Source: Chlamydiota bacterium (GTDB lineage Bacteria > Chlamydiota > Chlamydiia > Chlamydiales > Parachlamydiaceae). Taken from it: DNA of 43,103 bases. Position 1 is the stretch's first letter; every line of letters starts with the position of its first letter. The position numbers and the translations under genes are program-made. Location: positions 1 through 43,103 of the forward strand of contig JABDEO010000002.1 in NCBI GenBank assembly GCA_013287015.1, in the 5' to 3' direction. The notes beneath the pieces were generated by a model. That model saw only the letters and a program-made list of their open reading frames with translations, was not told the origin of the DNA and searched no databases. Below, piece after piece: positions 2,715 to 39,580 of this stretch.

Positions 2715-2717
2715 GCC

Positions 2718-2996
2718 TTATCCTGTTGATATCACCCACTCGGGGAAATGCTGGAAAATATTGATGGCGAATGTCATGATTTGGGCCCCTAGCCAGCCGC
2801 CCATAAACATCAACGTCAGTGTAACGGCAACGAGTTTTATCGTGAATGACAATGTCTGTTCTTGAATCTGTGTGGCGGCCTGAAAAATAGCGACAATAAT
2901 TCCAAAAAACATACTCACCAAAATAGGAGGCGCCGATAAAATAAGAATCAGCAGCATCCCCTGATAGGCAAGTTGAATCACATGCGACTGGCCCAT
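2718..2996 (-). CDS. sctS: Type III secretion export apparatus protein SctS (CdsS/YscS/FliQ family)
   Basis: 92-aa two-helix membrane protein with a FliQ-like sequence (AATQIQEQTLSF). It lies between sctR and sctT with gaps of only 3-9 nt. Confidence 0.9.
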   Translation of the reverse strand: MGQSHVIQLAYQGMLLILILSAPPILVSMFFGIIVAIFQAATQIQEQTLSFTIKLVAVTLTLMFMGGWLGAQIMTFAINIFQHFPEWVISTG

Positions 2997-3005
2997 AACA
3001 ATCTC

Positions 3006-3884: not shown

Positions 3885-3885
3885 T

Positions 3886-5381: not shown

Positions 5382-5391
5382 CCCTTCATCC

Positions 5392-6390
5392 TCAAGTTAC
5401 ATCAACATCGCGATCCTTCGCACTCTCCTCTTCCGCAGCTTTTTCGGCCGCCCCCTTCTCTACCGGTTCCTTTGCCTCGGAAGCATCCTCCAATTTTATT
5501 GGGTGAATATGGAATAATTCTTTTATACCCCCAAATTTTCGCAATAGGGGGTATATTTTCCAAGCGCCCCATATCAAGCTTAAAAGGAGCAGCAAGATGA
5601 TTACAATAAAAGAAAAGAAAATCAATCTAAACCGGTTCAGCGACTCCTTGCCTAACGTGATGGTCCAAACAGTGATATACTGCTTGTTTTCTTCACTTAA
5701 CGCCGTGGATGTTTCATTTCCAAAATAGGGATTAGTCACCCGATCTCCAATAACGGTCACATTGTCCGGATCTAAATTTGGAACGCTGGCCGCTACGAGT
5801 CGTTTAATTTTAGTGATGAGGTGACGATTAGGATCATCCAACACGCCATTATGTTTGACATATACGGAGGTTGTGCTTTTCTTCTTGGGAGCATTCGGGT
5901 TGAGTGGATTTTCTTCTGGGAATGTAATTTGCACTTCCGCATCCAATACTCCATCAATCTTACGAATCGTGCTTGCTATTTGCTCGGCTAGACCCGCTTG
6001 ATAGCGGATTTTTTCTTGCAGCTCCGAGGGGACAAGGCCGCCGCCCGTAAATATGCCTAGCAAGTTTTGTCCTCTACGGCGAGGAAGTCCAGCCTGATTA
6101 AGAAGAGCCATCGCTTCAGTAGCTTGTTCTGTATTGACGTTAATATCCCACAAAGAAGTTTTCGATCCGCCTCCGCCTCCCGTCCCTTCCGTACTCACCA
6201 CTTTTGCGGCCTCAATCCCTTTGCTTGCCAAGAAGACGATCATTTCATTAGCGTCTTTTTCATCCAATCCATTGACAATGGTTTTGGTGGAAGAGCAGCT
6301 AGTAAAGAGAGGAATAAAAAGACAAAGAAGGAGTAAATGGCGCGCAAACCGCATCCAAGGATTTTGCATGATGACACAATTCATTCGCAT
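5392..6390 (-). CDS. sctJ: Type III secretion inner-membrane ring lipoprotein SctJ (CdsJ/YscJ/PrgK family)
   Basis: Signal peptide with a Cys (LLLLCLFIPLFTSCSS), a YscJ-family N-domain (GLDEKDANEMIVFLASKGIEAAKV), a C-terminal TM helix and an acidic tail. Alternative starts at 6369 and 6354. Confidence 0.9.
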   Translation of the reverse strand: MRMNCVIMQNPWMRFARHLLLLCLFIPLFTSCSSTKTIVNGLDEKDANEMIVFLASKGIEAAKVVSTEGTGGGGGSKTSLWDINVNTEQATEAMALLNQAGLPRRRGQNLLGIFTGGGLVPSELQEKIRYQAGLAEQIASTIRKIDGVLDAEVQITFPEENPLNPNAPKKKSTTSVYVKHNGVLDDPNRHLITKIKRLVAASVPNLDPDNVTVIGDRVTNPYFGNETSTALSEENKQYITVWTITLGKESLNRFRLIFFSFIVIILLLLLSLIWGAWKIYPLLRKFGGIKELFHIHPIKLEDASEAKEPVEKGAAEKAAEEESAKDRDVDVT

Positions 6391-6553
6391 AATTATCGCT
6401 CTTCAAAAATAAAAGTAAAACCTATTCATTATCCTAACACATCCATCTAAAGGGTACAATTAAAAGTTGGGTTATTTTGCATCTTCACTTGCCTTTTGCT
6501 TGCGCAAGGAGTATGCTCCCTCTCTTTTAGAAGATATCCGCCTTTTAATATTT

Positions 6554-10000: not shown

Positions 10001-12400
10001 ATGACAGAATCAAATAATGTCACTTTTTTTCCATCTAATGGCAATTTTCTTCCATCTATAGAACCTTTCCGGCCGCCTTTTTTAAAAAAAAGCACATTGG
10101 ATTATCCTCCAACTATCAACTCTTCCAAAAAATTTTCTTTTACAGCTCGACTAATAGAGAAATGCAAAAAAGACAAAAACGACATTATTTTCGCAGATTT
10201 ACAGAGCATCCAGACCGAGCGCAGCGATAAACAGAAAAAAAATAGCGGAACTCGCATCATCCTCCCAAGCTTAGCAACTGAAAATGAGCCGGAAAATGCG
10301 AGAACTTCCAGAAAAATCACATCGACCGCCGTCAAAGGACCATTGAAAATCGCACTGCAAGAAAAATCTTTTAATGAAAATAAAAAAACATCCCCTAAGA
10401 ATATTTTTTCTCCTCGAGCCGCCTCGCCTCGAAAGGAATTATCTCCAAAAAGTTTAACCTCCCCTAAAAATACTACGAGGAGAGAGAGATCGCTTTCCGA
10501 TGAGATACATTTTTTTCGACTTACTCAACTAGGGCCTCGCGGCAATTACACACGGCAATTTCAAGAATTTTTAAAATTGAGCGACACGTATAGCATTGCC
10601 AGTGAAGAGGAACAGAAACTTCTTATTAGCGACTTAAGAAAAGAAGCGGAAGCGTTGCGTAAAGAGGCTGATAGGCTCTATAACGTTTTAAAAGGCTTAT
10701 TAATGGCCGTGGACAACATACATCAAATTCCTCGCGAAAAAGAAGAGATCGGTCAATTTTCCAAAGTGTTAATCAAGCAAATTCAATTTTTAGATTTTGG
10801 TTTAAGCTTTCCACATCTGGACAAAGGCTTTGTTTCATTACGAAGAGACTATTTTTACTTTGGACATAATCACGCTCATTTTGCACGCGCCTATGTCGAA
10901 TCCCGCTACCTGAACATGCCCACGATATGGATGAAAACGGGCAGTGGAAAATCTTTTGAATATTTTTGCGGTTACACTTCCCCCGGACGAGACTGGATGG
11001 TCTGCAGCGCCTCCTATCGAGGCGCCATGTGGAAAAATACAACGACAGGCAAATATTCTATAGATAAACAACAGGGAAGCGAATGGATGGAGATCAATTT
11101 GCACAAGCCCTTGCCGATATGGAAAGATCAAAAAACCGGAGAATACGCCTGCAGTGTTTCTGTTTTGGGCGCGGATTGGCAAGAATTACAAGAAATGGAA
11201 ATCCTCCAATTACTCGCCGATGCAGGAAAAAATGTTGAAACTTTTCATCATGCTGGATTGGAAAACACTTTGAAAAAGGCCGTGGACGATGCGCTTACAT
11301 CGCCTTCTTCATCCCGTAAACTCCCTATGGTTAAAGAGACCGTCGATCAGTTGAGGGTCGCTCAAGATACGCTCAAAAGGCGACAATTAATGCAAATGCA
11401 CCTGGATGCGAAATTTGCAAAATTGTCCGTTGATTGGGACAGAGCTCCAAACGCCACGACGCTAAAAGTCGCTCGCCCGGGAACTACCAGGGAGACGATC
11501 GCATGTGGGAAAAAGAAAAGCCCGATGGAGCTTCCGTCATTTTCCCAAGTTAAGGATTATGTAACGCGGATGGGAGGAGTGGAAGCTTTCATCGATTGCA
11601 AAATGTGTTTAGAGGACCTTTTGGCTTTCTATAAATTCATAAATGCGCATCGATTCTCAGTAAAAGAAAATAATAAAGAGGCTCAATGGAGCCTTGCGAC
11701 ATGCTCTCAACTTAAACAAGCGATTCTGACTATACTGTCGACAACAAAAAAAGAGGACGCTCAAAGCAAAATGCGACATTCTATAAAATTTGCACCGGAA
11801 GTCGCGCTGGATGGAAAAATATACGAGATAAGGAACAAACAAGTAAAATATGAAACATTCAATAGGCATTTGTTAAAAATTCAAAAGCGAAGCGCGATAT
11901 TGACGTTTGAAGATTTAACGGCGATGGAAAAAATAGAAAATTGCGGAAAGCAAATCGTCAGAGCTTTTGAACGAGAACTTTGGAGAGATTGGAGTCGACA
12001 AATCGAAAAAGAAACAGCCAAGTTATTACAAGAAGAAATGCAGGGACTGCTTGACATCGAAGATTCAATGGAAACAATACAAAAAGTCGCTGAAGAACGG
12101 GTCATGAATACAATGGGGCAGGTGTACCCGATGCTTGTTTACACATTTGACGAAATACTGAACAAATTAGCTGATGAGGTTGAAGCGGGAATTCTTAATA
12201 AAAAAATAATTATAGAAGGAATGCTTCTTGAAATAGAACAGAGCATCTGGCGTAAGGAGGATGCATTAGCCGTAGAAGAACAGATGTCCGATGATTTGAT
12301 CATGGAAGGAATACAACTTCTAAAAGAAATATTCGAAAATCCTCATTTGAGAATAACGCTAGAAGGTTTTTTCCTTAAACAAGAAGTCGTCAAGCAATAG
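10001..12400 (+). CDS. Large hypothetical protein with a disordered Ser/Lys/Pro-rich N-terminal region and a coiled-coil-rich C-terminal half; candidate effector
   Basis: 799-aa ORF with a good Shine-Dalgarno. Five S-P-[KR] motifs at residues 131-156. Glu/Lys-rich heptad-like segments in the C-terminal 250 aa. No family recognised. Confidence 0.7.
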   Translation: MTESNNVTFFPSNGNFLPSIEPFRPPFLKKSTLDYPPTINSSKKFSFTARLIEKCKKDKNDIIFADLQSIQTERSDKQKKNSGTRIILPSLATENEPENARTSRKITSTAVKGPLKIALQEKSFNENKKTSPKNIFSPRAASPRKELSPKSLTSPKNTTRRERSLSDEIHFFRLTQLGPRGNYTRQFQEFLKLSDTYSIASEEEQKLLISDLRKEAEALRKEADRLYNVLKGLLMAVDNIHQIPREKEEIGQFSKVLIKQIQFLDFGLSFPHLDKGFVSLRRDYFYFGHNHAHFARAYVESRYLNMPTIWMKTGSGKSFEYFCGYTSPGRDWMVCSASYRGAMWKNTTTGKYSIDKQQGSEWMEINLHKPLPIWKDQKTGEYACSVSVLGADWQELQEMEILQLLADAGKNVETFHHAGLENTLKKAVDDALTSPSSSRKLPMVKETVDQLRVAQDTLKRRQLMQMHLDAKFAKLSVDWDRAPNATTLKVARPGTTRETIACGKKKSPMELPSFSQVKDYVTRMGGVEAFIDCKMCLEDLLAFYKFINAHRFSVKENNKEAQWSLATCSQLKQAILTILSTTKKEDAQSKMRHSIKFAPEVALDGKIYEIRNKQVKYETFNRHLLKIQKRSAILTFEDLTAMEKIENCGKQIVRAFERELWRDWSRQIEKETAKLLQEEMQGLLDIEDSMETIQKVAEERVMNTMGQVYPMLVYTFDEILNKLADEVEAGILNKKIIIEGMLLEIEQSIWRKEDALAVEEQMSDDLIMEGIQLLKEIFENPHLRITLEGFFLKQEVVKQ

Positions 12401-12443
12401 GGCGACTGGCTACCTTCCTTAGCCCTCACTTTTAATTGCACCC
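12400..12443. repeat. Solo half-copy of the CCTTCCTTAGCCCTCACTTTTAATTGCACCC cassette
   Basis: GGGCGACTGGCTACCTTCCTTAGCCCTCACTTTTAATTGCACCC matches 31612-31659, and matches 31018-31053 in reverse complement. Confidence 0.9.
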
Positions 12444-12486
12444 ATAGTTTTGGAAGAACTGGACTTGTACAAAATTTTCCGTAATA

Positions 12487-13878
12487 ATGCTTAGAATAAT
12501 CCAAAACGAGCTGAGAAAGACCTTGTTTAAAATCTTGACCCCCCCCTTATCATGCACACAGGTGTTTGATCGAAAATCTTCATTAATTCTTGTATTGCTA
12601 TGCTTGCCTCTTCTCTTCTTTCCAAAAATTAATCTAATCAAACTCTCACAAGGAGAAACAGCTGGTTTACGCATTGACGACCTCATCTTATTCTTCTTTT
12701 CGATCGTTCTCTTATGGGCTCATTTTTCTATGCGGAATTTTTTTTTTAAAATTGAATTGTGGGTGTTTGCACTCGTCTGTTTCTCATTTTTCTCTTACTT
12801 CTCTAATAAAATATTGGTTCTAATAGAGGTTTTACCTGTAAATTCGAAAATTTTTTACTGCGTCCGTATTTTCGAATATTTTTTGTTTTTCTATGTGGGA
12901 GCGATGGCCTCCCAGTTTTTTAGAGAAAATCGGATTATTAAGGCGTTTTTTATTTGGAATTTAAGTTTGATGTTGTTGCAAAAGGCCGGAGTGATAGGAG
13001 AGTTCAACTCTATGTCAGGATATAACGCCGAAGGAGCGTATCGCGTTTCGGGAATTGCATCGTTTCCATCTGAAATGGGAGCTCTTTTAAATTTGATGTT
13101 TTGTTATTTTCTTTTCGAACCTCCACAAAACGCAAAAAGTTCTTCATTGCTTCCATCGCTATTAAAAAGAATAATTCAGCGCACCTATATCTACTGGTTA
13201 TTTTTTTTATTTGCCGTTCTCGTGATTTTAACAGGATCGCGCATCGCTCTTGTTGCGCTCATCCTCCCGTTTTTCGTAAAATTAAAAGAGGAATTTCGTT
13301 CAAGGAATATAGAATCGGTCTTTGCCGCGATGTTTTTTTTGCTATTCGCTACAGCTATTTTATTTTTCTTTATTGCCAATACGGAATCCATCGCAACGCG
13401 CAGCCAGGGTTTATTATCGTGGCGCAATCTTGATTTAGTGAAAAATGTCTGGCAAGTCCAAGATATCACATTGGGATCCGATGATGTCAATGAGATCTCT
13501 TATGAAGGCTATGACTTGAGCTGGTGGATCCGCATCCATAAATGGTGCTATGCATTAAAAATGTATGTGTCGCACCCGGAAAACTATTTGCAAGGGATAG
13601 GACCTGGTTTTGCCTGGTTGGCGTTGGATGGCGGATTGTTGCGTATTTTGGTTGAATACGGACTGCTCGGCTGCGTCATTTTTTGGCGCCTTTTTCGCTC
13701 CATTTCGCAACAGAATGTACAGCTGAAATGGATGGTTGTCGCCCTAGTGATCAATATGATTTTCTTTGACAGTTATTTGGCTTATAAGCCGATGAGCCTG
13801 CTTTTCTTTGTCGCCGGATACGCCCACTCGCAGGGCGCACAGACCCGAGACAATTGCAAAAGTCTTATGCAAAGGTGA
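12487..13878 (+). CDS. O-antigen ligase family (Wzy_C/WaaL-like) polytopic membrane protein
   Basis: 463 aa with about 10-12 hydrophobic segments. It has the family-typical ILTGSRIALVALILPFF block followed by a large loop. It lies next to a wzm/wzt locus, where a ligase rather than a polymerase is expected. Confidence 0.7.
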   Translation: MLRIIQNELRKTLFKILTPPLSCTQVFDRKSSLILVLLCLPLLFFPKINLIKLSQGETAGLRIDDLILFFFSIVLLWAHFSMRNFFFKIELWVFALVCFSFFSYFSNKILVLIEVLPVNSKIFYCVRIFEYFLFFYVGAMASQFFRENRIIKAFFIWNLSLMLLQKAGVIGEFNSMSGYNAEGAYRVSGIASFPSEMGALLNLMFCYFLFEPPQNAKSSSLLPSLLKRIIQRTYIYWLFFLFAVLVILTGSRIALVALILPFFVKLKEEFRSRNIESVFAAMFFLLFATAILFFFIANTESIATRSQGLLSWRNLDLVKNVWQVQDITLGSDDVNEISYEGYDLSWWIRIHKWCYALKMYVSHPENYLQGIGPGFAWLALDGGLLRILVEYGLLGCVIFWRLFRSISQQNVQLKWMVVALVINMIFFDSYLAYKPMSLLFFVAGYAHSQGAQTRDNCKSLMQR

Positions 13879-14031
13879 GCGCTTACCCCTCTCTGTGCTC
13901 TCTGTGGGCTCTGTGGCAGCCAAAAAGCCTTAAATTGAATCATTTTAAGGCTTTATATCCACCACAGAGCCCACAGAGAGCACAGAGAGGGATAAGCGCT
14001 CACCTTTGCATATTATCCAAGACTTTTGCAA
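13854..14031. repeat. Palindromic element (arms of about 63-70 bp) with an inner CCTTAAATTGAATCATTTTAAGG hairpin
   Basis: TTGCAAAAGTCTTATGCAAAGGTGAGCGCTTACCCCTCTCTGTGCTCTCTGTGGGCTCTGTGG (13854-13916) pairs with CCACAGAGCCCACAGAGAGCACAGAGAGGGATAAGCGCTCACCTTTGCATATTATCCAAGACTTTTGCAA (13962-14031). The left arm contains the last codons and the TGA of the upstream gene. Confidence 0.95.
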
Positions 14032-14047
14032 CTGAGTTCTTCTCAGG

Positions 14048-15349
14048 TTAACTTTTTTGAGAACGCAATTGGTACAATAGTTCATGATAGATGGCTCGAG
14101 GCCCTCGAAGCTCATAGAAAGAAGAACAGATGCGACCGATATCGCGCATTGTGAGAGACCCCTTAGGCTGCTCAGCCAAATAGCGAGTAAGTCGATCGAT
14201 GGGCTCTACAATATGTTCCCAATAAAATTGCGGACGGATTTTATCGAGATTTTTTTGAATTTGTTGTTTCGATTCAGAACCAAGAATATGTTTAACGGCT
14301 TGGACGATCGCTTCAACATCATGATAAGGGACAACGACGCCGAGCCCGCAGCTTTCGATGAGATGCGCGAAAGAATCTCCCTGGGTCGCGATCATAGGCA
14401 AACCAGCCCAAATGTAATCTAGGATGCGCGTACGGAAAGCGTAATGCGTTTCCAGATGTTCTGCATGGGTCGATACGCCAATATCAGCTTCCAGCAAAAA
14501 ATCTTGACGCTGTTCGTATGGAGTCCACCCGTAGTTAAAAAACACATATTTATCGAGAAGTTCCAACTCTTTCGCCAAGTGCACCGAATCCAACGCCATT
14601 TTCATTGCGGGCATGCGTTCATTAGGATGTTTGACGCCCATGAACACCAAATGTATGGGGCAGTCCTCCATGCTGAGACGCTTGACCGCCCGAATAAGCG
14701 TGAGTGGATCGAACCAATTCCAGACGCCGCCGCCCCAGAGCATGACTTTGTCGCTCTCTTTGAGATTAAACATTTTTTTTAGACCATTCCCGCTGTGTCT
14801 TGGTGGAAGAGAAGGCAGTCCGAATGGCACGATATCAATCAAATTTTTTAAAGTAGGATCCGCATCATAGGTTGAAGGCGTAATGCGTTGCAATCCCATC
14901 AATAGTCCGCACCATAGATCGCGCTGTTTAACGTTGGCGCATAAGACAGCGTCCGCCATTTGAAAAGAAAACACCATACCATTGACGACTTGTCGATTTT
15001 TATGGTCTCGCAAATGCGAGGGAAGCGACTTAAAGCGTTCTAGATTCTCAAGAGGCATTGGGTCATAGGCGTCTAAGATGATCTTCACGCCCAAGCGTTT
15101 TGCGTGCCAAGCCATCCAATGTGTAACAGCTTGTGTGACGATCACATCGGCGTCTTTCATTTCCATGACCAGCGTTTGGCGGGTGCGTTGTTTCATTGCA
15201 AAACCTTCAGGGACTAGGTCCGATCGATTGGGAGTGAGCAATACGACCTGATGTCGCTTTGACAGAGCCTTGGCAAACTCCCAATAGCGGATGGCCGGAC
15301 CCGCCATCGATGTCCCTACAACTTCAAAGCAGTGCAAAATAATCTTCAT
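14048..15349 (-). CDS. Glycosyltransferase, GT-B fold (GT1/GT4 family)
   Basis: 433 aa. The C-terminal half is typical of GT4 enzymes (STHAEHLETHYAFRTRILDYIWAGLPMIATQGDSFAHLIE). It starts 4 nt downstream of wzt. Confidence 0.8.
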   Translation of the reverse strand: MKIILHCFEVVGTSMAGPAIRYWEFAKALSKRHQVVLLTPNRSDLVPEGFAMKQRTRQTLVMEMKDADVIVTQAVTHWMAWHAKRLGVKIILDAYDPMPLENLERFKSLPSHLRDHKNRQVVNGMVFSFQMADAVLCANVKQRDLWCGLLMGLQRITPSTYDADPTLKNLIDIVPFGLPSLPPRHSGNGLKKMFNLKESDKVMLWGGGVWNWFDPLTLIRAVKRLSMEDCPIHLVFMGVKHPNERMPAMKMALDSVHLAKELELLDKYVFFNYGWTPYEQRQDFLLEADIGVSTHAEHLETHYAFRTRILDYIWAGLPMIATQGDSFAHLIESCGLGVVVPYHDVEAIVQAVKHILGSESKQQIQKNLDKIRPQFYWEHIVEPIDRLTRYLAEQPKGSLTMRDIGRICSSFYELRGPRAIYHELLYQLRSQKS

Positions 15350-15353
15350 GATT

Positions 15354-16619
15354 TTAATTCCTTAACTGCCAGTTTTTTCCTAACGAAACACCCTCTATTC
15401 CCGGGGAATGAGCGAATCGTGTGTTTTTCTTAATGGGATAGATGGGAAATTTCAAAATAATTTCGTCGTTTAGAATTTTCTTTTTATTATGAATAGAGGA
15501 GTCCACTTTCAATAAGTATTCTCCTTCATGAAAAAGATCGGCCTCGATTATAAGAAACGCGCAGTGACGTCCCGGAGTGACAAAATTTTGTTCACTGTCC
15601 ACATCATCGATTGTATGAGCGCGGGCCAAAAGCTGATTGCGCTGATTCCAAACTCCGACTCCAAAAAATAGATCGGGAGTAGGCCGCAGCGTTTCATATT
15701 CAATTTCAACGCGGATTTTCTCACCTTGATAAAAAAACTCTTGATTTTCTTTCTCAGGCGTTAACCGAACGCGATGAAAACGAATGTGTTCATCCCCAGC
15801 GTTCCCTTCCCAGCAAAGGGTGTGGGCATGGCAAGTTTGCATATATGCGTTAACACATTGGTCCATGGAGCCGGACGCTTTGACGATGCCTTTTTCTAAA
15901 AAAACTCCTTTATTGCATAAACTCAACGCTGAACCAATGTCATGACTGACAAAGATGACTGTCCGCCCGCTGCCGCTTAAGCGATTCAGTTTTTGGAGGC
16001 ATTTTGCTTGAAATTTAGCGTCGCCCACGGCAAGCACCTCATCGACAATCAGCAAATCGGGATCGAGATGCGCAGCGATTGCGAAGCCGAGACGCATATA
16101 CATTCCGCTGGAAAATCGTTTTACGGGAGTATCTAGAAAATTTTCGATTTCAGCGAAAGCGGCAATTTCATCGAATTTCTGTTTGATCTCCTGATGACGC
16201 ATGCCCAAGATGGCTCCATTTAAAAAAATATTTTCCCTTCCGGTCAATTCAGGATGAAATCCCGTTCCCACTTCAAGCAGACTTGCAACCCGCCCCCGCA
16301 ATTTAATGCGTCCAGTCGTGGGCAGAGTGATGCGCGACAGAATCTTGAGCAGTGTGGATTTACCGGCGCCATTTCCGCCTACAATTCCGACACGATCCCC
16401 CTCTTCAATGGAGAGATTGACATTTTGCAACGCCCAAAAATCCTCATGGACGCTTTTAAAAGGCGCTGACGCGCCGGTGAAAGGATGCCGAATTTTCTGA
16501 ATGCATCGCTTTGCCTGCCGTGACAGCGTTCCGACCAAAGTTGCATATGCTTCATGTGAGCCGTGCGACAACCGATATTTCTTGGAAACATTCTCTATTT
16601 CGACAATTTTTTTCGCCAT
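15354..16619 (-). CDS. wzt: Polysaccharide/O-antigen ABC exporter ATP-binding protein Wzt (TagH-like) with a C-terminal carbohydrate-binding-type domain
   Basis: Walker A GGNGAGKST, ABC signature SSGMYMRLGFA and Walker B LLIVDEVLAVGD. A C-terminal extension of about 150 aa is rich in beta-strand pattern, as in Wzt_C domains. Confidence 0.9.
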   Translation of the reverse strand: MAKKIVEIENVSKKYRLSHGSHEAYATLVGTLSRQAKRCIQKIRHPFTGASAPFKSVHEDFWALQNVNLSIEEGDRVGIVGGNGAGKSTLLKILSRITLPTTGRIKLRGRVASLLEVGTGFHPELTGRENIFLNGAILGMRHQEIKQKFDEIAAFAEIENFLDTPVKRFSSGMYMRLGFAIAAHLDPDLLIVDEVLAVGDAKFQAKCLQKLNRLSGSGRTVIFVSHDIGSALSLCNKGVFLEKGIVKASGSMDQCVNAYMQTCHAHTLCWEGNAGDEHIRFHRVRLTPEKENQEFFYQGEKIRVEIEYETLRPTPDLFFGVGVWNQRNQLLARAHTIDDVDSEQNFVTPGRHCAFLIIEADLFHEGEYLLKVDSSIHNKKKILNDEIILKFPIYPIKKNTRFAHSPGIEGVSLGKNWQLRN

Positions 16620-16710
16620 GGCTAGCGCTCCATCAAGTTTACAATTTCGGATTGTGCTGCGGCAAGGCCCAATGTCATTAAGTTAAAAAACATAATATAT
16701 ATTAAAGTAA

Positions 16711-16785
16711 ACGCTTACGGGCTCTGTGGTTGATATAAAACCTTAAATTGAATCATTTTAAGGCTTTTTGGCAACCACAGAGCGC
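16711..16785. repeat. Short palindromic element of the CCTTAAATTGAATCATTTTAAGG family, located inside the wzm-wzt spacer
   Basis: ACGCTTACGGGCTCTGTGGTTG...CCTTAAATTGAATCATTTTAAGG...CAACCACAGAGC. It shares the core and the CTCTGTGG/CCACAGAG arms with 13854-14031. Confidence 0.9.
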
Positions 16786-17624
16786 TAGATCTGATCCGCA
16801 AATGTTTGTTCTGTTTTCCGAAAATAAAGCACGCCCGTCCATAAAATCACAAGAGTGATTGCGATGGAAAAACCGATGGAGAACGGCATTTGCGGGTAAG
16901 AGATTCCAAAAAACACCCAACGAAAGCCATCAATAACTCCACTCATTGGGTTCAAAAAATAAAGCCATCGCCACGGTTCCGGGATGATGAATGTCCCATA
17001 TCCAACTGGAGAAATAAACATTCCAAACTGAACAAAAAAAGGAATCATTATCCGAAAATCCCGGTATTTGACTGTAAGAGCTGAAAGCCATAAGCCCGTC
17101 CCGACGCATAGGGACGCCGCAAGCAGGAGAAATAGAGGAAAACAGAGAAAAGTCCATGGGTTAAGAACTCCCAGAAAGAGGCTAAGCGCAATAAGTAGAA
17201 AAGCCGTGATGGCGAAATCAACAAGATGGACAATGATTTGTGAAGCGGGGATGATCATGCGCGGAAAATAAATTTTCGACACAAGCGGCGCATTATTGAT
17301 TAGACTGTTGCAAGTGTCTACGGCGCTGCTGGAATAGAGCTGCCAAGGCAGCATTGCCGCCAACACAAATAAAGGATAATTTACGTGATCTGAAGAAAAA
17401 TTTGCAATTTTTCCAAAAAGAAAGGCAAAGACAAGCATATTCAATAAAGGACGTAAAAGCGCCCAAGCCACGCCAAAAAACGCCTGTTTGTAACGAACCA
17501 GAATGTCTCGCCAGGCGAGAAAATAAAACAACTCACGGCAGCGAAAAATATCCTTTAAATATTCTCGTTGAGGCAGTGAAGGATCGACAACTAAATAAAA
17601 TTCCTGAGCGTGTTCTTTAGTCAT
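16785..17624 (-). CDS. wzm: ABC-2 type polysaccharide exporter permease Wzm (TagG-like)
   Basis: 279 aa with six hydrophobic segments and an ABC-2 family N-terminal block (RELFYFLAWRDILVRYKQAFFGVAWALLRPLL). It overlaps the upstream GT2 gene by 4 nt. Confidence 0.88.
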   Translation of the reverse strand: MTKEHAQEFYLVVDPSLPQREYLKDIFRCRELFYFLAWRDILVRYKQAFFGVAWALLRPLLNMLVFAFLFGKIANFSSDHVNYPLFVLAAMLPWQLYSSSAVDTCNSLINNAPLVSKIYFPRMIIPASQIIVHLVDFAITAFLLIALSLFLGVLNPWTFLCFPLFLLLAASLCVGTGLWLSALTVKYRDFRIMIPFFVQFGMFISPVGYGTFIIPEPWRWLYFLNPMSGVIDGFRWVFFGISYPQMPFSIGFSIAITLVILWTGVLYFRKTEQTFADQI

Positions 17625-19480: not shown

Positions 19481-19553
19481 ATTTCTTTGATCAATTTTCT
19501 TGTTTGAGTCATATTAACTCAAACCATGGAATTCAGAATACAGAATTTAGCGT

Positions 19554-19620
19554 TTTTGGAGTCAGGCCTGACACTATGGCGCTTTTAAAAGCGTTATAGT
19601 ATCAGGCCTGACCCCAAAAA
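19554..19620. repeat. 67-bp palindrome carrying two GTCAGGCCTGAC-type cassettes
   Basis: TTTTTGGAGTCAGGCCTGACACTATGGCGCTTTT|AAAAGCGTTATAGTATCAGGCCTGACCCCAAAAA, immediately downstream of the histidine kinase stop codon. Confidence 0.95.
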
Positions 19621-23883: not shown

Positions 23884-24072
23884 CTTGTAGCGTAGACTTC
23901 AGTCTGCGCTTGTTTGCGCAGGTTTTAACCTGCGCTTGTTTTTGCGGGTTTTAACCCGCAAGTCACACTTGCGAAAAAGGCTGAAGCGTACTTTTTGCGG
24001 GTTGAAACCCGCAAAAACAAACGCAGGTTAAAACCTGCGTAAACAAGCGCAGACTGAAGTCTACGCTACAAG
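23884..24072. repeat. 189-bp palindrome whose 78-bp arms each contain two internal hairpins (branched or cruciform potential)
   Basis: CTTGTAGCGTAGACTTCAGTCTGCGCTTGTTTGCGCAGGTTTTAACCTGCGCTTGTTTTTGCGGGTTTTAACCCGCAA (23884-23961) pairs with 23995-24072. Sub-hairpins are GCGCAGGTTTTAACCTGCGC and TGCGGGTTTTAACCCGCA. Confidence 0.95.
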
Positions 24073-26796: not shown

Positions 26797-27149
26797 CATT
26801 CAGCATTGTTCCACTGCGAACCATCGCCTATGCCCGCAGCGGCGACAAAGGCGACAGCGCCAATATTGGCGTCATTGCCTACAATGCGGCGGGTTACGCC
26901 TTCTTACGAGAATATCTTTCCGCTGATAAGGTGAATGCTTATTTCAAACCCCTAGGGGTGACTTCGACCATCCGATATGAGCTGGCCAACTTGGAAGCGT
27001 TGAATTTCGTTCTTAATCATGTACTGGCGGGCGGAGGAAGCCGTTCCCTGCGCACCGACTCTCAAGGTAAGGCGCTAGGACAAGCGATTCTTGAAATGCC
27101 CATTGAAATTGAAGATTCCATATTAAAACAAGCTCGACGCTCTTATTAG
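26793..27149 (+). CDS. Small AtuA-partner protein (AtuA-like ferredoxin-fold domain family)
   Basis: MTFSIVPLRTIAYARSGDKGDSANIGV... with the conserved RSGDKGD and LRTDSQGKALG blocks. GGAGG Shine-Dalgarno at 26781. The ATG overlaps the upstream TGA (ATGA). The part of the track ORF upstream of 26793 is an out-of-context extension. Confidence 0.8.
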   Translation: MTFSIVPLRTIAYARSGDKGDSANIGVIAYNAAGYAFLREYLSADKVNAYFKPLGVTSTIRYELANLEALNFVLNHVLAGGGSRSLRTDSQGKALGQAILEMPIEIEDSILKQARRSY

Positions 27150-27202
27150 TTATGAGCATATCTTTCCAGACGACGCCCTTGCCTACGCCCGAAGTTGTTG
27201 AA

Positions 27203-27526
27203 GCGCATTGGGGTCAGGCCTGGGCTGAAACGAATGACCGATTTTCGAAGAAAATCAGCTTGGGGTTTACCCCCTAATTTTGGCGCCGTTTTTCGACGCC
27301 AGTGAGTGGTAGGGACGATGGGGACTCAAGCGACCTTAGGGACATTAGAGACAGGGACAATCAGCTTGTTTGTCCCTGTCTCCAAGGTCCCTAAGGTCGC
27401 TTGAGTCCCCATCGTCCCTACCACTCACTGGCGTCGAAAAACGGCGCCAAAATTAGGGGGATAAAACCGGGCTGAATTTTGAAGATACTCAACCATTCGT
27501 TTCAGCCTAGGCCTGACCCAATGCGA
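27203..27526. repeat. 324-bp giant palindrome, copy 1 (arms of about 155 bp; terminal GGGTCAGGCCTG cassettes)
   Basis: CGCATTGGGGTCAGGCCTGGGCTGAAACGAATG...GGTAGGGACGATGGGGACTCAAGCGACCTTAGGGAC...centre...GTCCCTAAGGTCGCTTGAGTCCCCATCGTCCCTACC...CATTCGTTTCAGCCTAGGCCTGACCCAATGCG. The inner 100 bp or so of each arm pair almost perfectly. Confidence 0.97.
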
Positions 27527-27529
27527 CGC

Positions 27530-28199
27530 TTACATCTCTTTAAATAGATCTTCAAGCAACGCTTGATTTGTTATTATTTCCTCGGAATACATGGTCCGCT
27601 TTAAACCCATTTTAGTAATCATGCAAAAGAAAAGCTGTTTTTTTGTTCTTGTTTGCTTTCGAAAGATTTCCATTTTTTTCAACAGCTCTTGAGCGTAAGA
27701 TTTATCGATTGCAAATTGATTGTCAGAGCATTTGATTTCGCATAGAGTAATCGCTCCATCAAGTCGATCAAAAAGCAGATCAATTTGCGCTCCTTCTTGC
27801 TGTACCTCTTTTTGGATTTTTTTTGCTTTAGGCGCAAATCGCCAAGTTCCTACAGTAGCCCCTGGATCGATTTTTAATGCTTTGCGAATCTGATCGATAT
27901 GCTTATAGCATGTAGATTCGAATGATAACCCAGCCCAAATTTTCCAAGTTGGCTGATTCGATTGAGATATCCAAAATCCTTCGTTGATTGCTTTCTTAGC
28001 TATTGTCTTCAAGTTTGGCTCAATCCAACGCAAATAAAAAAGGCTATATTCATCATCAATGACGTAGTAGACTCCTCGATCTTTATGTCCATTCTGATTT
28101 ATTGGATTCAATGAGGTCTCGCAGCAATTCTTGCTCCCTACGTCGCCCTATGATCTTCTCCGTAATGTCTGCAACGTCATCCTTATTCTTGGTCATATG
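27530..28199 (-). pseudogene. Degraded ATPase gene (PF01637-type AAA ATPase with DUF234-like C-terminal domain): N-terminal 30 or so codons plus the C-terminal 190 or so codons, with the AAA core missing
   Basis: ATG at 28199 opens MTKNKDDVADITEKIIGRRREQELLRDLIES (the typical N-terminus of this ATPase family) and hits a stop after 36 codons. A second frame (TTG 28111 to 27530) encodes only the C-terminal nuclease-fold-like part (GAQIDLLFDRLDGAITLCEIKCSDNQF). No Walker A or B motif is present. Confidence 0.6.
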
Positions 28200-28399
28200 C
28201 TCCTATGGCTTTATTTTCTTAAATCTCGCGGAACACACGTGTTTTATGTTTTAAGCGCTGTGATTATATTTCTAAATGCCGCGGTAAAAATGCAAAACAA
28301 TGTCTGTTCCGCGTTCTTTATATTACCAAACGCCGCTGGAAGGAAACAAGAATTTTATGCATTGGAGTCAGACCTGACCCCACTTTAAGTAAATCATTA

Positions 28400-28454
28400 G
28401 GACAGGGGCTTCTCGAAATGCCCATTGAAATTGAAGATTTCATATTAAAACAAA
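28400..28454. repeat. Relic copy of the 3' end of the AtuA-partner gene (direct repeat of 27079-27133)
   Basis: GGACAGGGGCTTCTCGAAATGCCCATTGAAATTGAAGATTTCATATTAAAACAA compared with GGACAAGCGATTCTTGAAATGCCCATTGAAATTGAAGATTCCATATTAAAACAA. Confidence 0.9.
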
Positions 28455-28508: not shown

Positions 28509-28700
28509 ATTCAACGCAAAGGCGCAAAGACGCAAAGGCGCAAAGAATAGATTTGGCCAACTCCATTGCAAGGAATAAAAATTAATGTCAGATGAGTCTG
28601 ACTTATCCTTCCTATCCTTCCTATCCTGAAATTAATTTTTATTCCTTGCAATGAAATGAGCCGCATCTATTCTTTGCGTCTTTGCGCCTTTGCGTTGAAT
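28509..28700. repeat. Two-layer palindrome with 8-mer (CGCAAAGR) and 9-mer (TATCCTTCC) micro-tandem repeats
   Basis: Outer arms are ATTCAACGCAAAGGCGCAAAGACGCAAAGGCGCAAAGAATAGAT (28509-28552) and ATCTATTCTTTGCGTCTTTGCGCCTTTGCGTTGAAT (28665-28700). Inner arms are CATTGCAAGGAATAAAAATTAAT (28564-28586) and ATTAATTTTTATTCCTTGCAATG (28631-28653). The loop contains GTCAGATGAGTCTGAC and (TATCCTTCC)x3. Confidence 0.93.
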
Positions 28701-31017: not shown

Positions 31018-31659
31018 GGGTGCAATTAAAAGTGAGGGGTTAAGGAGGTAGCCAGGGCGTCCCGCCCTGCTTTTTAGGCAAAAAAACATTGAAGATAATA
31101 CACGCGACCAGGGCGGGACGCCCTTCCATATAACGCAGCCCTTTTGCACGTGTTATTTAACGCGAGTTTTGGGAGTTTGACGCTTTGATGCTTTTAAAAG
31201 CGCCAGGGTATTTTGGGGGTCAGGCCTGACCTGGGCTGAAACGAATGACCGATTTTCGAAGAAAATCAGCTTGGGGTTTACCCCCTAATTTTGGCGCCGT
31301 TTTTCCACGCCAGTGGGTGGTAGGGACGATGGGGACTCAAGCGACCTTAGGGACCTTGGAGACAGGGACAAATAACCTGATTGTCCCTGTCTCCAATGTC
31401 CCTAAGGTCGCTTGAGTCCCCATCGTCCCTACCACTCACTGGCGTGGAAAAACGGCGCCAAAATTAGGGGGATAAAATACGGCTAATTTTTTTCAAAAAT
31501 CAGTCATTCGTTTCAGCCCAGGCCTGACCCCAAAATACGCGCCAAAGCGTCAATGTCAGGACAATCGTTTATCCAAAACTCGCGTTATTTACAGACAAAC
31601 ACCGCGGAGCCGTAGGGCAACTGGCCACCTTCCTTAACCCCTCACTTTTAATTGCACCC
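31018..31659. repeat. Composite four-layer nested palindrome of about 640 bp; the innermost layer (31211-31537) is copy 2 of the 324-bp element
   Basis: Layer 1: GGGTGCAATTAAAAGTGAGGGGTTAAGGAGGTAGCC (31018-31053) pairs with GGCCACCTTCCTTAACCCCTCACTTTTAATTGCACCC (31623-31659). Layer 2: CCAGGGCGTCCCGCCCTG (31052-) and CCAGGGCGGGACGCCCT (31108-). Layer 3: TTATTTAACGCGAGTTTTGG... (31153-) pairs with CCAAAACTCGCGTTATTTAC (31574-31593). Layer 4: GGGGTCAGGCCTGAC...CAGGCCTGACCCC. Confidence 0.95.
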
Positions 31660-31664: not shown

Positions 31665-32003
31665 TTACACGTCCAAGATCAACCGTATGGCATCGTCAAC
31701 AAGTTTCATCTCTTCAATTGACAATTCGCCGATTTTGTCTCCAAGCCTTTTAGTTCTATCTATAGACCTCATCTGCCTTGGAACGACTTTTCCAGCTCTT
31801 CCAGCCAAATTAATTTTCACCTCAATTTTCGAAAAAATGCGCTCTACATTACTCGTGATTGGGGCGACAACAATCAATTCAGAACGATTCGCAATGTCGC
31901 TGGAAATAATAAGACAAGGACGCGTCTTGTTTATTCCTTTACCATCAGTTGGATCTAAACGCACCCAGTAAATATCACCTCTTTTTGGATAATCATTTTT
32001 CAT
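31665..32003 (-). CDS. mazF: Type II toxin-antitoxin system toxin, PemK/MazF family endoribonuclease
   Basis: 112 aa. PKRGDIYWVRLDPTDGKGINKTRPCLIISSDIANRSELIVVAPITS is the canonical PemK/MazF N-terminal pattern. It overlaps the upstream antitoxin gene by 11 nt. Confidence 0.88.
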   Translation of the reverse strand: MKNDYPKRGDIYWVRLDPTDGKGINKTRPCLIISSDIANRSELIVVAPITSNVERIFSKIEVKINLAGRAGKVVPRQMRSIDRTKRLGDKIGELSIEEMKLVDDAIRLILDV

Positions 32004-32262
32004 TTACTGTCTGTTCTCCAAAATCAAAATCGTCCATCCCAATAAAATCTTCACCTTCAATATTAGAAAAATTTTGTTTAACTTCGATATTTCCAATGTC
32101 TTTATCAGCTTCTAAAAACTCCATTAGTAAAGTTTTTTCATCTTTCTTGAGAGCTTCCCACAAAGCCTGAGTGACGAATTTACTCATTTTACCTCGCCCA
32201 ACCCTAGTGTGTAGAGCGGCATCCAACTGCTCAGGAATTGTATATGTTACAGCTTTTTTCAT
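31993..32262 (-). CDS. Cognate antitoxin (ribbon-helix-helix-like N-terminus, acidic C-terminal tail)
   Basis: MKKAVTYTIPEQLDAALHTRVGRGKMSKFVTQALWEAL (RHH pattern), then an acidic tail (EGEDFIGMDDFDFGE). AGGAG Shine-Dalgarno upstream of the ATG at 32262; the track ORF starts further upstream at 32304. Confidence 0.75.
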   Translation of the reverse strand: MKKAVTYTIPEQLDAALHTRVGRGKMSKFVTQALWEALKKDEKTLLMEFLEADKDIGNIEVKQNFSNIEGEDFIGMDDFDFGEQTVNEK

Positions 32263-32388
32263 GATAATGTAACTCCTCTTTGCTTGAATTATACATATAT
32301 TCATATATATTTATCAAGTCCAAAGCTTGGTATATTTGAATATTTCAACATAAAAAATCCCTTCTTGGTTATAATTAATAACATCATT

Positions 32389-33801: not shown

Positions 33802-34908
33802 TTATTCGCTCGAGTGCAAAGCCCACGCTGCAACCTCTTCCTCTATAGTGTTGTAGCGCTGATAATCCTCATATTCCTCACAATTCTCAAACTCGTCATG
33901 ACCGATTAATTTTTCAATGTTTCGAAAAATGCTGCATATTTCTTCGACTTTTTCATATTCGCCATTGTAGATTATTTTATGAAGATTTGTTAGTTGCTCC
34001 GGTGTGAATTGAATGTTCGCATTCGCATTCCGTTCAACAAGTATTTTTTTTTGGCCTTCTGACAAAGTCATTTTAAAGTTTGAAACTGATGTTCGAAGCT
34101 CATTGACATCGTTGCTATCCAAAGTTTCTATTATATCCATGGCTTCGTCGGCATACAATTCAGCGAATTCCTTACCATATTGTTTTTCAATCGATTCTTT
34201 TAATTCATCAGGCAACACTTGACTGCCTCCTGTCCTATATAAACCATATAAATATTTTAAAGCTTCATCACTCTCAGCATCTTTTTTCTCCACTTTGTCA
34301 GCAAGAAAGGAGAAAAGCCCATAATAAAGCGATTTGAAAGCCTCAGACCGAATTTTTTCCGATTCGCCTTTAGTATTTATCAAAAATACCAAGTAGTAAC
34401 GACTCATTTTTTTTAATACATCGATAAGCGGTTGGATTAATGATAATTTAGGAGGAGGCTCGCTTACACTCCAGTCATCTAATACTTTTTTTAAAACCCC
34501 CAAAGCTGTTATACTTATTGGCTTTTCTGAAATACGTTCACATAAAACGCCCATATCTATCATTTTTTTATCTTCCAACCGAATTTTTTCTTCACATTGG
34601 GCGATAATTTTTTCAAATTGCTCCCTCAGCAGCGTTATTCCTACCGCTTCGGGACTTATTTTTTTCATAAACAGATTCATAAGAAATTCTTTCGATTTCT
34701 CGGAATTTACAGTTCCCGATTGCAATCCTTTAATTTTATTAATTAACTGTTCTAATGAGACTGAGACTCCTTCCATTGATTCTGATTTTTTAAACACATG
34801 ACCATGCGATTTTTCTCCGGGAGAATACACAAGTTCTGCACTGAATTTTTCTAATTGACTCCAATTTTCTATTCCTTGCAATGGGTTGTTCTCAGATATA
34901 GAAGTCAT
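33802..34908 (-). CDS. Acidic helical hypothetical protein, tandem paralog A (368 aa)
   Basis: Long ORF sharing most residues with 35123..36259, including a conserved upstream region of about 110 bp. No signal peptide, TM segment or recognisable family. Confidence 0.7.
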   Translation of the reverse strand: MTSISENNPLQGIENWSQLEKFSAELVYSPGEKSHGHVFKKSESMEGVSVSLEQLINKIKGLQSGTVNSEKSKEFLMNLFMKKISPEAVGITLLREQFEKIIAQCEEKIRLEDKKMIDMGVLCERISEKPISITALGVLKKVLDDWSVSEPPPKLSLIQPLIDVLKKMSRYYLVFLINTKGESEKIRSEAFKSLYYGLFSFLADKVEKKDAESDEALKYLYGLYRTGGSQVLPDELKESIEKQYGKEFAELYADEAMDIIETLDSNDVNELRTSVSNFKMTLSEGQKKILVERNANANIQFTPEQLTNLHKIIYNGEYEKVEEICSIFRNIEKLIGHDEFENCEEYEDYQRYNTIEEEVAAWALHSSE

Positions 34909-35122
34909 GACACCCTCCTAATTTTTACAAATGTTGAAATAATAAATAAATATAAACAATAAACTGTATTATTACTTACATAATAACCTATAAAAATAAA
35001 AAACACACAATTTATTATTTAAAGTAATCAGATCGTCCCGACCTGATTACTGATGCATTCAAGGCCGGGACGGCCTTGTTATCTTATACCGCCACCATGA
35101 CTTTTTAAGGACGTACCTAAAA

Positions 35123-36259
35123 TCATCTTATTCGCTCGAGTGCAAGAACCCACGCTGCAACCTCTTCCTCTATAGTGTTGTAGCGCTGATAATCCTCATA
35201 TTCCTCACAATTCTCAAACTCGTCATGACCGATTAATCTTTCAATGTTTCGAAAAATGCTGCATATTTTTTCGACTTTTTCATATTCGCCATTGTTGATT
35301 ATTTTATGAAGATTTGTTAGTTGCTCCGGTGTGAATTGAATGTTCGCATTCCGTTCAACAAGTATTTTTTTTTGGCCTTCTGACAAAGTCATTCTAAAGT
35401 TTGAAAGTAGTGTTTGAAGCGCCTTGACATCGTTGCTATCCAAAGTTTCTATTATATCCATGGCTTCGTCGGCATACAATTCAGCGAATTCCTTACCATA
35501 TTGTTTTTCAATCGACTTTTTTAAAACATTAGGCAAGGCTTGACTGCCTCCTGTCCTATATAAATCATATAAATATTTTAAAGCTTCATCACTTTCAGCA
35601 TCTTTTTTTTCCACTTTGTCAGCAAGAAAGGAGAAAAGCCCATAATAAAGCGATTTGAAAGCCTCAGACCGAATTTTTTCCGATTCGTCTTTAGTATGTG
35701 TCAAAAATAAAAGGTCGAAACGAGGCATTTTTTTTAATACATCGATAAGGGGTTGGATTAATGATAATTTAGGAGGAGGCTTGCTTATATTCCAGCCATC
35801 TAATATTTCTTTTAAAACCCCCAAAGCTGTTATACTTATCGGATTTTCTGAAATACATTCACATAAGGTGCGCATATTTATCATTCTTTTATCTTCTACC
35901 CGAGATTTTTCTTCATCTTGTGTTAATGAAAGTTCAGGAAATGCTTGAGTAATGATTTTTTCAAATCTCCCTCTTAGCAGCGTTATTCCTGGCGCTTCGG
36001 GGCTTATTTTTTTCATAAACAGATTCATAAGAAATTCTTTCGATTTCTCGAGATTTACGGTTCCCGATTGCAATGCTTTAATTTTGGTAATTAACTGCTC
36101 CAATGAGACTGAGATTCCGTCCGTTGATCCTGATTTTTTGAACACATGACCATGCAATTCTTTTTCGGAGGGAGAATACTCAAATTCTGAACTGAATTTT
36201 TCTAATTGACTCCAATTTTCTATTCCCTGCAATGGGTTGTTGTCAGATATAGAAGTCAT
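35123..36259 (-). CDS. Acidic helical hypothetical protein, tandem paralog B (378 aa)
   Basis: Same family as 33802..34908. It has a 10-aa insertion (AFPELSLTQD) and a different C-terminal tail caused by a 1-nt indel near the 3' end. Confidence 0.7.
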   Translation of the reverse strand: MTSISDNNPLQGIENWSQLEKFSSEFEYSPSEKELHGHVFKKSGSTDGISVSLEQLITKIKALQSGTVNLEKSKEFLMNLFMKKISPEAPGITLLRGRFEKIITQAFPELSLTQDEEKSRVEDKRMINMRTLCECISENPISITALGVLKEILDGWNISKPPPKLSLIQPLIDVLKKMPRFDLLFLTHTKDESEKIRSEAFKSLYYGLFSFLADKVEKKDAESDEALKYLYDLYRTGGSQALPNVLKKSIEKQYGKEFAELYADEAMDIIETLDSNDVKALQTLLSNFRMTLSEGQKKILVERNANIQFTPEQLTNLHKIINNGEYEKVEKICSIFRNIERLIGHDEFENCEEYEDYQRYNTIEEEVAAWVLALERIR

Positions 36260-36456
36260 GACACCCTCCTAATTTTTACAAATGTTGAAATAATAAATAA
36301 ATATAAACAACAAACTGTATTATCACTAATCACATAATAACATATAAAAATTAAAAAACACACTTTATTATTTAAATCAGCCAATATCTAATTTTTTGGG
36401 TAATACTCCTATGCCGACACGATTGAATTTGAAACATCCCTTTGGGTACATCCTTA

Positions 36457-36691
36457 AATAACGCGAGTTTTGGATAAACGATTGCCCTGATATTGACGCT
36501 TTGGCGCGTATTTTGGGGTCAGGCCTGACACTATGACACTTTTAAAAACGCCAGTATGACACGTTTCAAAGCATCATACTGGCGTTTTTAAAAGTGTCAT
36601 AGTGTCAGGCCTGACCCCAAAAATACCCTGGCGCTTTTAAAAGTATCAAAGTGTCAAACTCACCTTTGCACGTTGTGCAAGACTTTTGCAA
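36457..36691. repeat. Mosaic repeat block: AACGCGAGTTTTGGATAAACG cassette, a 113-bp GTCAGGCCTGAC palindrome (36511-36623), a GCGCTTTTAAAAG cassette and a CACCTTTGCA...GACTTTTGCAA cassette
   Basis: 36457-36536 is the reverse complement of 31521-31593. 36511-36623 is a palindrome (TTTTGGGGTCAGGCCTGACACTATGACACTTTTAAAAACGCCAGTATGA...). 36623-36660 is the reverse complement of 31177-31213. 36661-36691 resembles 14001-14031. Confidence 0.93.
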
Positions 36692-36836
36692 TTATTTGAG
36701 GACATGCCCTTTGGTCTTTTAGGTCCTTCAGGTCCCTTAAGGTCCCTCCGTCCTTAAATTTGTTTTTTGTGTTGTGGGGAAAATGAGGATTCAGTAGAAG
36801 TAGGGGTCACCGTTTTTATTAGATGCAGGGGCAAAC

Positions 36837-39532: not shown

Positions 39533-39580
39533 GAAGGAAGGTAGCCAGGGCGGGACGCCCTGGTTACCTTCCTTAGCCCT
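39533..39580. repeat. 48-bp hairpin cassette AAGGAAGGTAGCCAGGGCGggaCGCCCTGGTTACCTTCCTT, directly after the MFS-PlsC stop codon
   Basis: Perfect or near-perfect stem of about 20 bp. It shares the CCAGGGCGGGACGCCCTGG and CCTTCCTTAGCCCT cassettes with 31041-31125, 31623-31640 and 12410-12425. It probably also acts as a terminator. Confidence 0.9.

Follow-up and report, generated by a model that had tools for sequence, protein, structure and literature searches.

Two long palindromes, c1 and c2, lie in intergenic regions of a 43,103-nucleotide (nt) stretch of DNA from an environmental chlamydia (Chlamydiota bacterium, contig JABDEO010000002.1, positions 1 to 43,103; the whole stretch is referred to here as the window), and their cores are inverted relative to each other while their outer arms keep the same orientation. 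A second pair of palindromes within the window, A and B, has the converse arrangement, with an inverted mid-layer around a direct centre. Both pairs are paralogous, multi-copy, nested and non-autonomous palindromic repeats of the intergenic regions of this chlamydia, similar to miniature inverted-repeat transposable elements (MITEs) or repetitive extragenic palindromes (REPs), and the nested superfamily to which they belong, recognisable by its GGGGTCAGGCCTG ends, appears to be undescribed in Chlamydiota. Core flips in nested palindromes are a known consequence of inverted repeats, and here they are found in that apparently undescribed family of an environmental chlamydia.

Core inversion between c1 and c2

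Both palindromes are near-perfect and about 310 nt long, with arms of ~150 nt that are 87-89% complementary and loops of 9 nt (Table 1). The first is flanked by the AtuA-ferredoxin gene and the open reading frame (ORF) 27530-28111, whose 3' ends converge on it, and a single-stranded DNA fold of -168 kcal/mol is predicted for its region (27145-27535). The second is nested within a larger element (31173-31591), which in turn lies within a palindrome at 31018-31659.

Each copy was aligned to the other and both to their reverse complements, and the columns were classed by four-arm state. The outer zone (27239-27269 plus its mirror) keeps the direct state at each of its seven doubly asymmetric sites, whereas three of the four asymmetric sites in the core (27344/86, 27361/69 and 27364/66) are swapped, and orientation differs between outer zone and core (Fisher exact p=0.024). 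The central base, 27365, is the sole core site in the direct state, a point absent from the initial annotation mentioned below. Over 27344-27386 there are 3 mismatches in 43 positions when the cores are compared in inverted orientation, against 8 in 43 when they are compared directly. This arrangement had been proposed in an initial annotation made from the sequence alone, and the palindrome sequences quoted there are correct on re-reading of the window. The same counts were obtained for its statement that the c2 loop agrees with the reverse complement of the c1 loop at 7/9 positions and with the direct sequence at 4/9; the arm mismatches that it described as changing sides do so at 27344 (A)/27386 (G) versus 31355 (C)/31397 (T), and the constancy that it claimed for the outer arms is borne out by every outer site.

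Inverted repeats border the core on either side, in the form of the 74-nt perfect arms of c1. An exchange anywhere in this symmetric zone would invert the core without trace, and on sequence grounds the breakpoints of a c1 inversion must fall within 27270-27343 or its mirror, with no scar left behind. Between c1 and c2 the left outer arm has 0/47 mismatches and the right outer arm 13/45, with 2/74 and 1/74 in the symmetric zones, a mosaic distribution which suggests exchange among copies. Furthermore, one copy-specific difference is mirrored in the two arms (27295/27435), where c1 reads CGACG...CGTCG and c2 reads CCACG...CGTGG.

Table 1. Positions of the palindromes and of their component parts within the window.
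Feature	Position	Description	Basis
Palindrome c1	27208-27519	arms ~150 nt, 87% complementary; loop 9 nt	repeat listing and DNA fold
c1 perfectly symmetric zone	27270-27343, mirror 27387-27460	74 nt; 0 mismatches between left arm and reverse complement of right	
c1 inner palindromic module	27309-27421	113 nt; GTAG start, CTAC end	
c1 core as quoted in the initial annotation	27339-27391		
c1 core, inverted relative to c2	27344-27386	markers 27344/27386, 27361/27369, 27364/27366	
c1 swapped arm site	27344 (A), mirror 27386 (G)		
c1 loop TCAGCTTGT	27361-27369	centre 27365	
Palindrome c2	31223-31533	core 31355-31397	
c2 swapped arm site	31355 (C), mirror 31397 (T)		
c2 loop ATAACCTGA	31372-31380		
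Palindrome A	13906-13972	inside palindrome 13866-14012; mid-layer 13917-13927 and 13951-13961, centre 13928-13954	
Palindrome B	16719-16783	inner layers only; centre 16741-16767	
Small GGGGTCAGGCCTGAC-ended superfamily member	19553-19620	30-nt cargo between two TCAGGCCTGA repeats	
Bare 18-bp palindrome GGAGTCAGACCTGACCCC	28364-28381	superfamily ends, no cargo	
Inverted copy of c2-hosting element	36455-36661	ends as in 31173-31230 and 31519-31591 (97%, 95%)	

A second pair with the converse pattern

In A and B all three mirror sites of the mid-layer are swapped (13920, 13921 and 13923), while the centre (13928-13954 = 16741-16767) matches at 27/27 positions when read directly and at 24/27 in inverted orientation, and has both of its asymmetric sites in the direct state. 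The mid-layer is therefore flipped and the centre direct, the reverse of what is seen in c1/c2 and as the initial annotation had it when describing mid-layer flanks inverted around a loop of unchanged orientation. The centre is bounded by an 11-bp stem, AAAGCCTTAAA/TTTAAGGCTTT, and the outer stems are GGGCTCTGTGG/CCACAGAGCCC.

The states of A and B were both recovered from an independent public run, the sole one to contain this genome and labelled as a soil metagenome (X1), whose 31-mer contigs were placed on the window and their depth read off. State A is represented by a 56-nt contig with an exact match to 13918-13973 and a depth of 679 (~5-6 genomic copies), and state B by a 2771-nt contig that extends from unique flank across the B centre as far as 16772, with 0 mismatches; exact contigs join B to both of its unique flanks. 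Since the markers of A and B lie at most 10 nt apart, assembly cannot have made the A/B pattern, and the core-flip phenomenon exists in the genome irrespective of c1/c2.

For c1/c2 alone, an assembly artefact has to be considered, in which the assembler threaded the core arbitrarily because flip and flop k-mers are identical for k <75. The c1 symmetric zone extends for 74 nt with 0 mismatches, all four c1/c2 arms are near-identical within it, the X1 contigs break throughout the element with none spanning 27270-27344, and the threading depends on the assembler behind the window sequence. However, reads of at least 100 nt or a k of at least 77 would phase the core, the contig runs correctly through a dozen other high-copy palindromes, and the flip markers of A/B, which are <31 nt apart, are confirmed by exact independent contigs; an artefact is judged distinctly unlikely. 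Coincident point mutations with no inversion would be another source of the differences, given that informative sites are few and that a clean inversion does not account for base 27365 or for two further positions of the loop. Each swapped pair would nevertheless need matching changes at the mirror positions of both copies, and the swaps occur at 3/4 of the c core pairs and 3/3 of the A/B mid-layer sites with the adjacent layers staying direct, so that this explanation is barely credible.

A third candidate flip, between the hairpin CCAGGGCG-TCC-CGCCCTG at 31053 and a GGA loop at 39546, was rejected because the 39539-39580 copy can be read in the opposite orientation, which places its extended arm on the matching side; just one weak marker argues for a flip there.

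A nested, multi-copy superfamily

The depth of the X1 contigs at c1 changes from layer to layer. It is ~100-115 in the unique flanks and 11000-17000 in the outermost layer, with peaks at ~150x unique depth, and then falls through 4800-7000 for the inner arm to 390-540 at the core. The layers of c1 thus differ in copy number, and by depth there are about 4-5 genomic copies of the c core, two of which are inside the window, and some 30 copies of the A/B centre hairpin. Moreover, X1 contigs part ways exactly at the mirror positions 27309 and 27421, which identifies the inner GTAG...CTAC module as a separable unit.

The outer end GGGGTCAGGCCTG has 15 matches in the window against 0.26 expected, and it surrounds differing palindromic cargos at 19553, 36511, c1 and c2; in the element at 36455-36661, a different 76-nt palindromic cargo takes the place of the c core. 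The cargos at 19553 and 36511 are flanked by TCAGGCCTGA repeats and that at c2 by CCTGA, for which c1 has no counterpart. These flanking repeats are themselves palindromic, direct and inverted repeats are indistinguishable in them, and their reading as target-site duplications is equivocal. Long layered palindromes are present in most of the sizeable intergenic regions inspected. Beyond the window, GGGGTCAGGCCTG terminates or begins contigs of other chlamydial genomes (L008, L009), and in another (L012) it bounds palindromes with subterminal ATGGGGTCAG repeats. The repeats share with MITEs their dispersed copies with conserved terminal inverted repeats and their absence from the orthologous sites of a relative, albeit a distant one.

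Rfam and tRNA scans gave no matches, and a search for spurious ORFs in further palindrome copies, with a 61-amino acid (aa) translation as query, gave no candidates. Scans of genomes and metagenome contigs with the arm 20-mer GATGGGGACTCAAGCGACCT returned chance matches in an Acidoferrum metagenome-assembled genome (MAG), plus a half-module in another metagenome (L003), and yielded no additional complete copy of the c family. There, at positions 5608-5640 of contig Ga0206832_10435, a sequence of similar GC content, 33 nt are the same as the c inner arm (GGTAGGGACGATGGGGACTCAAGCGACCTTAGG) and form a lone, non-palindromic half. Nothing specific was found in the literature on nested palindromes or MITEs in chlamydiae.

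Contigs from a run on an unrelated soil metagenome (X2) join the outer arms (~22 nt each) of the palindromes 28509-28700 and 23884-24072 over different 15-39-nt centres, so that the arms are constant and the centres variable across organisms; this run (0.11 of words) contains mainly the metK of other organisms, with the same organism present at a depth of ~2. The palindrome GGGTGCAATTAAAAGTGAGGGGTTAAGGAGGTAGCCAG... has its halves parted by ~560 nt of nested elements at 31018-31659, while its right half stands alone at 12398-12444, immediately behind the stop codon of a gene that ends at 12400, and it occurs as a compact 42-nt hairpin at 39539-39580 (within 39534-39580). Arms are made of short quasi-tandem motifs, namely CTCTGTG heptamers, GCAAAG[GA]C, and GGGAC every 7-10 nt (13880-13915, 28509-28537, 27309-27358), and a degenerate GGTCC/GGTCCCT run at 36700-36760 (...AGGTCCTTCAGGTCCCTTAAGGTCCCTCCGTCC...) looks like one arm of the c inner module in a decayed state.

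Absence from a syntenic relative

The palindromes sit well inside the 43-kb contig, between chromosomal genes (AtuA, thioesterase, DUF502, MnmE, glycosyltransferases and an ABC transporter). MetK, SulP and a Wzt-type ABC transporter are also encoded in the window, and the named homologues of its proteins come from Parachlamydia, Anoxychlamydiales and Chlamydiales MAGs. Its relatives are distant, the best AtuA match being 71% identical. One of them (L006, AtuA 68% identical) has a syntenic locus in which AtuA, AtuA-ferredoxin, thioesterase, two DUF502 genes and MnmE are closely packed, with no palindrome at the positions of c1, 28509-28700 and c2. The lack of palindromes at these orthologous sites indicates that the elements are insertions in the lineage of the window.

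The relative has nested palindromes of its own. In one pair of these (2882-3154 and 13676-13952), 19/19 doubly asymmetric sites are direct and 0 inverted, with no flip in any layer, and there are 4 mirrored sites against 12 private differences. A similar arm vocabulary is seen at 15411-15440 of the same locus, with CACAGAG runs and CCCAGGGC-loop-GCCCTGGG hairpins.

A 65-nt direct repeat of the 3' end of the AtuA-ferredoxin gene (27067-27131 and 28389-28453, 86% identical) encloses an insert of 1.3 kb containing c1, a truncated ATPase_2/DUF234 gene and the bare palindrome at 28364-28381, none of which L006 has. The c2 nest and mnmE are separated by a gene for a PemK/MazF toxin (31665-32003) and a small partner ORF upstream of it (31993-32304), a pair that is missing from the syntenic L006 locus.

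Probable inversion within inverted repeats

The reading that we hold to be on balance probable is that the flips arose by inversion within the inverted repeats of paralogous nested palindromes, via strand exchange between arms or between copies. Every layer of such a palindrome is flanked by inverted repeats in the form of the next layer outward, and an arm-to-arm strand exchange would invert everything inside the exchange point while leaving the outside untouched and without a junction scar. This outcome could be reached by three routes. Replication could switch templates at the hairpin, the arms could recombine within one molecule, or a family member paired antiparallel, as a palindrome permits, could act as donor in gene conversion. 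The same arm-to-arm copying would be expected to homogenise the arms, so that differences come to be mirrored in both arms of one copy; the mirrored differences at 27295/27435 and the four in the L006 pair may be read in this way, since they fit arm-to-arm or copy-to-copy exchange. Of the hairpin-mediated mechanisms listed in the initial annotation, template switching is the preferred explanation, while the three routes are not separable from one another. We infer the strand-exchange route from the pattern of the copies, and likewise the passive, functionless nature of the flips.

Several points weigh against this interpretation. The pattern is drawn from two pairs and about a dozen informative sites, and the direct state of 27365 demands one extra substitution. 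The published orientation of the c1 core depends on the assembler; the 31-mer contigs cannot phase it, and because the 74-nt symmetric zone parts the core markers from the outer markers, the c1 core orientation lies beyond the k-mer check. Comparisons were all between paralogues, with no locus seen in both states, and inversion in place would thus be deduced from differences between copies. Finally, X1 shows the 27309-27421 module, and also the A/B centre hairpin, in other settings, and re-insertion in the opposite orientation is possible.

According to this last alternative, the inner module is a small mobile element that targets the outer dyad centre, and it either entered the copies in opposite orientations or was excised and re-inserted. 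The exact divergence of X1 contigs at 27309 and 27421 places the module in other contexts, the identical half-module in L003 is non-palindromic, and the A/B centre hairpin is preceded by unrelated sequence in one X1 contig (loose end 16742). In addition, the same TCAGGCCTGA...TCAGGCCTGA ends hold different cargos (19553, 36511, c2), an apparent CCTGA direct repeat surrounds the c2 cargo, and there are published cases of REP dimers inserted at the centre of a longer palindrome (PMC3733652). Nevertheless, two independent insertions would be needed at an identical position of two otherwise near-identical composites (left outer arms 0/47, junctions identical), and the flipped markers are confined to 27344-27386, well within the module boundary. 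No consistent target-site duplication emerged, with c1 having no CCTGA repeat, and the window encodes no transposase. Re-insertion is considered fairly unlikely as the source of the flips.

No sign of a dedicated hairpin system in the window

Flip/flop isomers might alternatively come from dedicated hairpin processing, whether by replication of the rolling-hairpin or parvovirus type, by a resolvase of telomeres or cruciforms, or by an invertase acting at a specific site. Hairpin-templated copying would be expected to give both flip/flop and arm symmetrisation, the GGGGTCAGGCCTG ends are conserved across chlamydial genomes (L008, L009, L012), and the ends fit the GGGGWSAS motif of the terminal inverted repeats (TIRs) that flank HUH tyrosine transposases (PMC3733652). 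However, GGGGWSAS is a degenerate consensus of 8 nt, the loci lie within the chromosome and not at replicon termini, and no flip is present in any layer of the L006 pair. The initial annotation had suggested a search for resolvases or nickases linked to the palindromes; run on the 43-kb window, it found none encoded, with no resolvase, nickase (Rep/HUH, Y1_Tnp), invertase or transposase domain in ORFs of at least 100 aa. Nor are the traits of a site-specific invertase switch (Hin/Gin, Fim, shufflon) seen, as there is no recombinase gene in the window and the 27-43-nt inverted cores carry neither coding sequence nor a promoter. There is no support for hairpin-primed replication of the parvovirus kind, nor for a dedicated resolvase, and a dedicated system of any of these kinds is very improbable. 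The part of the earlier proposal that invoked parvoviral inverted terminal repeats and hairpin-primed replication is accordingly not retained, the loci being internal rather than at replicon ends, and core inversion is a generic by-product of inverted repeats (PMC12928735, PMC8794818), not the mark of a special system.

A related idea, which is quite doubtful, is that of active fold-back copying or transposition by an enzyme recognising the GGGGTCAGGCCTGAC ends, a chromosomal analogue of rolling-hairpin replication. On this doubtful reading the process would generate long perfect palindromes out of half-templates, maintain the symmetry of their arms, place new modules in nested fashion at the dyad centres and yield cores in either orientation.

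The ORF 27530-28111 next to c1 was considered as a palindrome-associated nuclease and rejected in favour of a truncated defence-type gene of the ATPase_2/DUF234 type. It has a weak RE_TdeIII match (E=0.024). DUF234 is present in its homologues, which come after an ATPase_2 fragment within a methyltransferase island (L011), near-identical copies in two further loci (L009, L010) have no c-like palindrome linked to them, and a 92% identical protein is encoded in a JGI metagenome contig.

Comparison with known systems

The closest published parallels to inversion within inverted repeats come from template switching, which yields loop inversions and compensatory stem changes in rRNA and microRNA hairpins (Monttinen & Loytynoja 2022, PMC8794818) and for which a four-point model has been described (Loytynoja & Goldman 2017, PMC5453318). 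These hairpins likewise have a stem around a segment that is the exact reverse complement in a related sequence, paired stem changes, and no scar where the stem is perfect. The published cases are short hairpins of RNA genes, typically with 4-nt loops, in which orthologues were compared, whereas the chlamydial palindromes have stems of up to 150 nt and inverted segments of at least 27-43 nt, are paralogous copies of mobile elements, and give no sign of a selected RNA product (no Rfam match). Small inversions between 11-24 bp inverted repeats are also known from plastid hairpins, where flip-flop orientations occur and recombination between the arms has been invoked (Kim & Lee 2005, as summarised in PMC12928735). 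They are similar in being 5-50 bp long, bounded by short stem-loop-forming inverted repeats and recurrent in either orientation, but they concern single-copy organelle loci across species and are sometimes heteroplasmic, while the chlamydial families are bacterial and multi-copy.

In their distribution the palindromes are reminiscent of the REP/REPIN, BIME and TIR repeats that are associated with RAYT/TIRYT tyrosine transposases (Di Nocera et al. 2013, PMC3733652), which are also intergenic, multi-copy and palindromic and which as dimers may be nested in longer palindromes. The GTAG...CTAC termini of the inner module recall GTAG-REPs, and the outer end GGGGTCAG fits the GGGGWSAS TIR motif (PMC3733652), which has 11 matches in the window against 3.65 expected, 8 of them being this element-end sequence; with motifs so short, the termini and the match are a lead and not a membership result. 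The chlamydial units are single long hairpins of 65-310 nt with arms that do not fold individually, compared with 20-40 nt for REPs, and neither a RAYT/TIRYT gene nor a Y1_Tnp domain is present in the window. Chlamydiota are not a reported host of REP/TIR families and are mentioned there in passing (PMC3733652).

The hairpins of parvoviruses and poxviruses (vaccinia, PMC8956199) are alike in having two reverse-complement isomers in a palindrome, with stem mismatches that mark the orientation. In those viruses the hairpins are located at the termini of linear replicons and the isomers are obligatory in each round of replication via nicking or resolution, in contrast to the internal chromosomal repeats described here, for which there is no nickase or resolvase in the window.

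Other features of the window

A type III secretion cluster is located at 1848-6390, comprising in this order sctJ (YscJ), a gene of 288 aa with a weak YscK match, sctL, sctR and sctT; the gap at 2714-3006, between sctR and sctT, is assumed to hold sctS. This gene order is that of the chlamydial CT559-CT564 cluster and, taken with the named homologues from Parachlamydia and Anoxychlamydiales MAGs, assigns the window to Chlamydiota. In the region 33802-36327 an ORF of ~370 aa without a significant Pfam match is duplicated in tandem, with block-wise identities of 87-99%, and at 35% GC, against ~44% elsewhere, the region may be foreign.

Implications

Inverted cores have consequences for how such sequences are read. 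Short k-mers leave the core orientation of a palindrome undetermined, so assemblies and alignments can misreport these cores, and apparent substitution counts are inflated by them. The GGGGTCAGGCCTG-ended superfamily may serve as a strain marker and for studies of genome plasticity in environmental chlamydiae. Escherichia coli tolerates such long perfect hairpins only with sbcCD mutations. If the flips are ongoing, this chlamydia would offer a genome that tolerates hundreds of perfect hairpins of 100-300 nt and a bacterium in which template switching, or recombination of the arms, could be measured at long palindromes in a natural setting.

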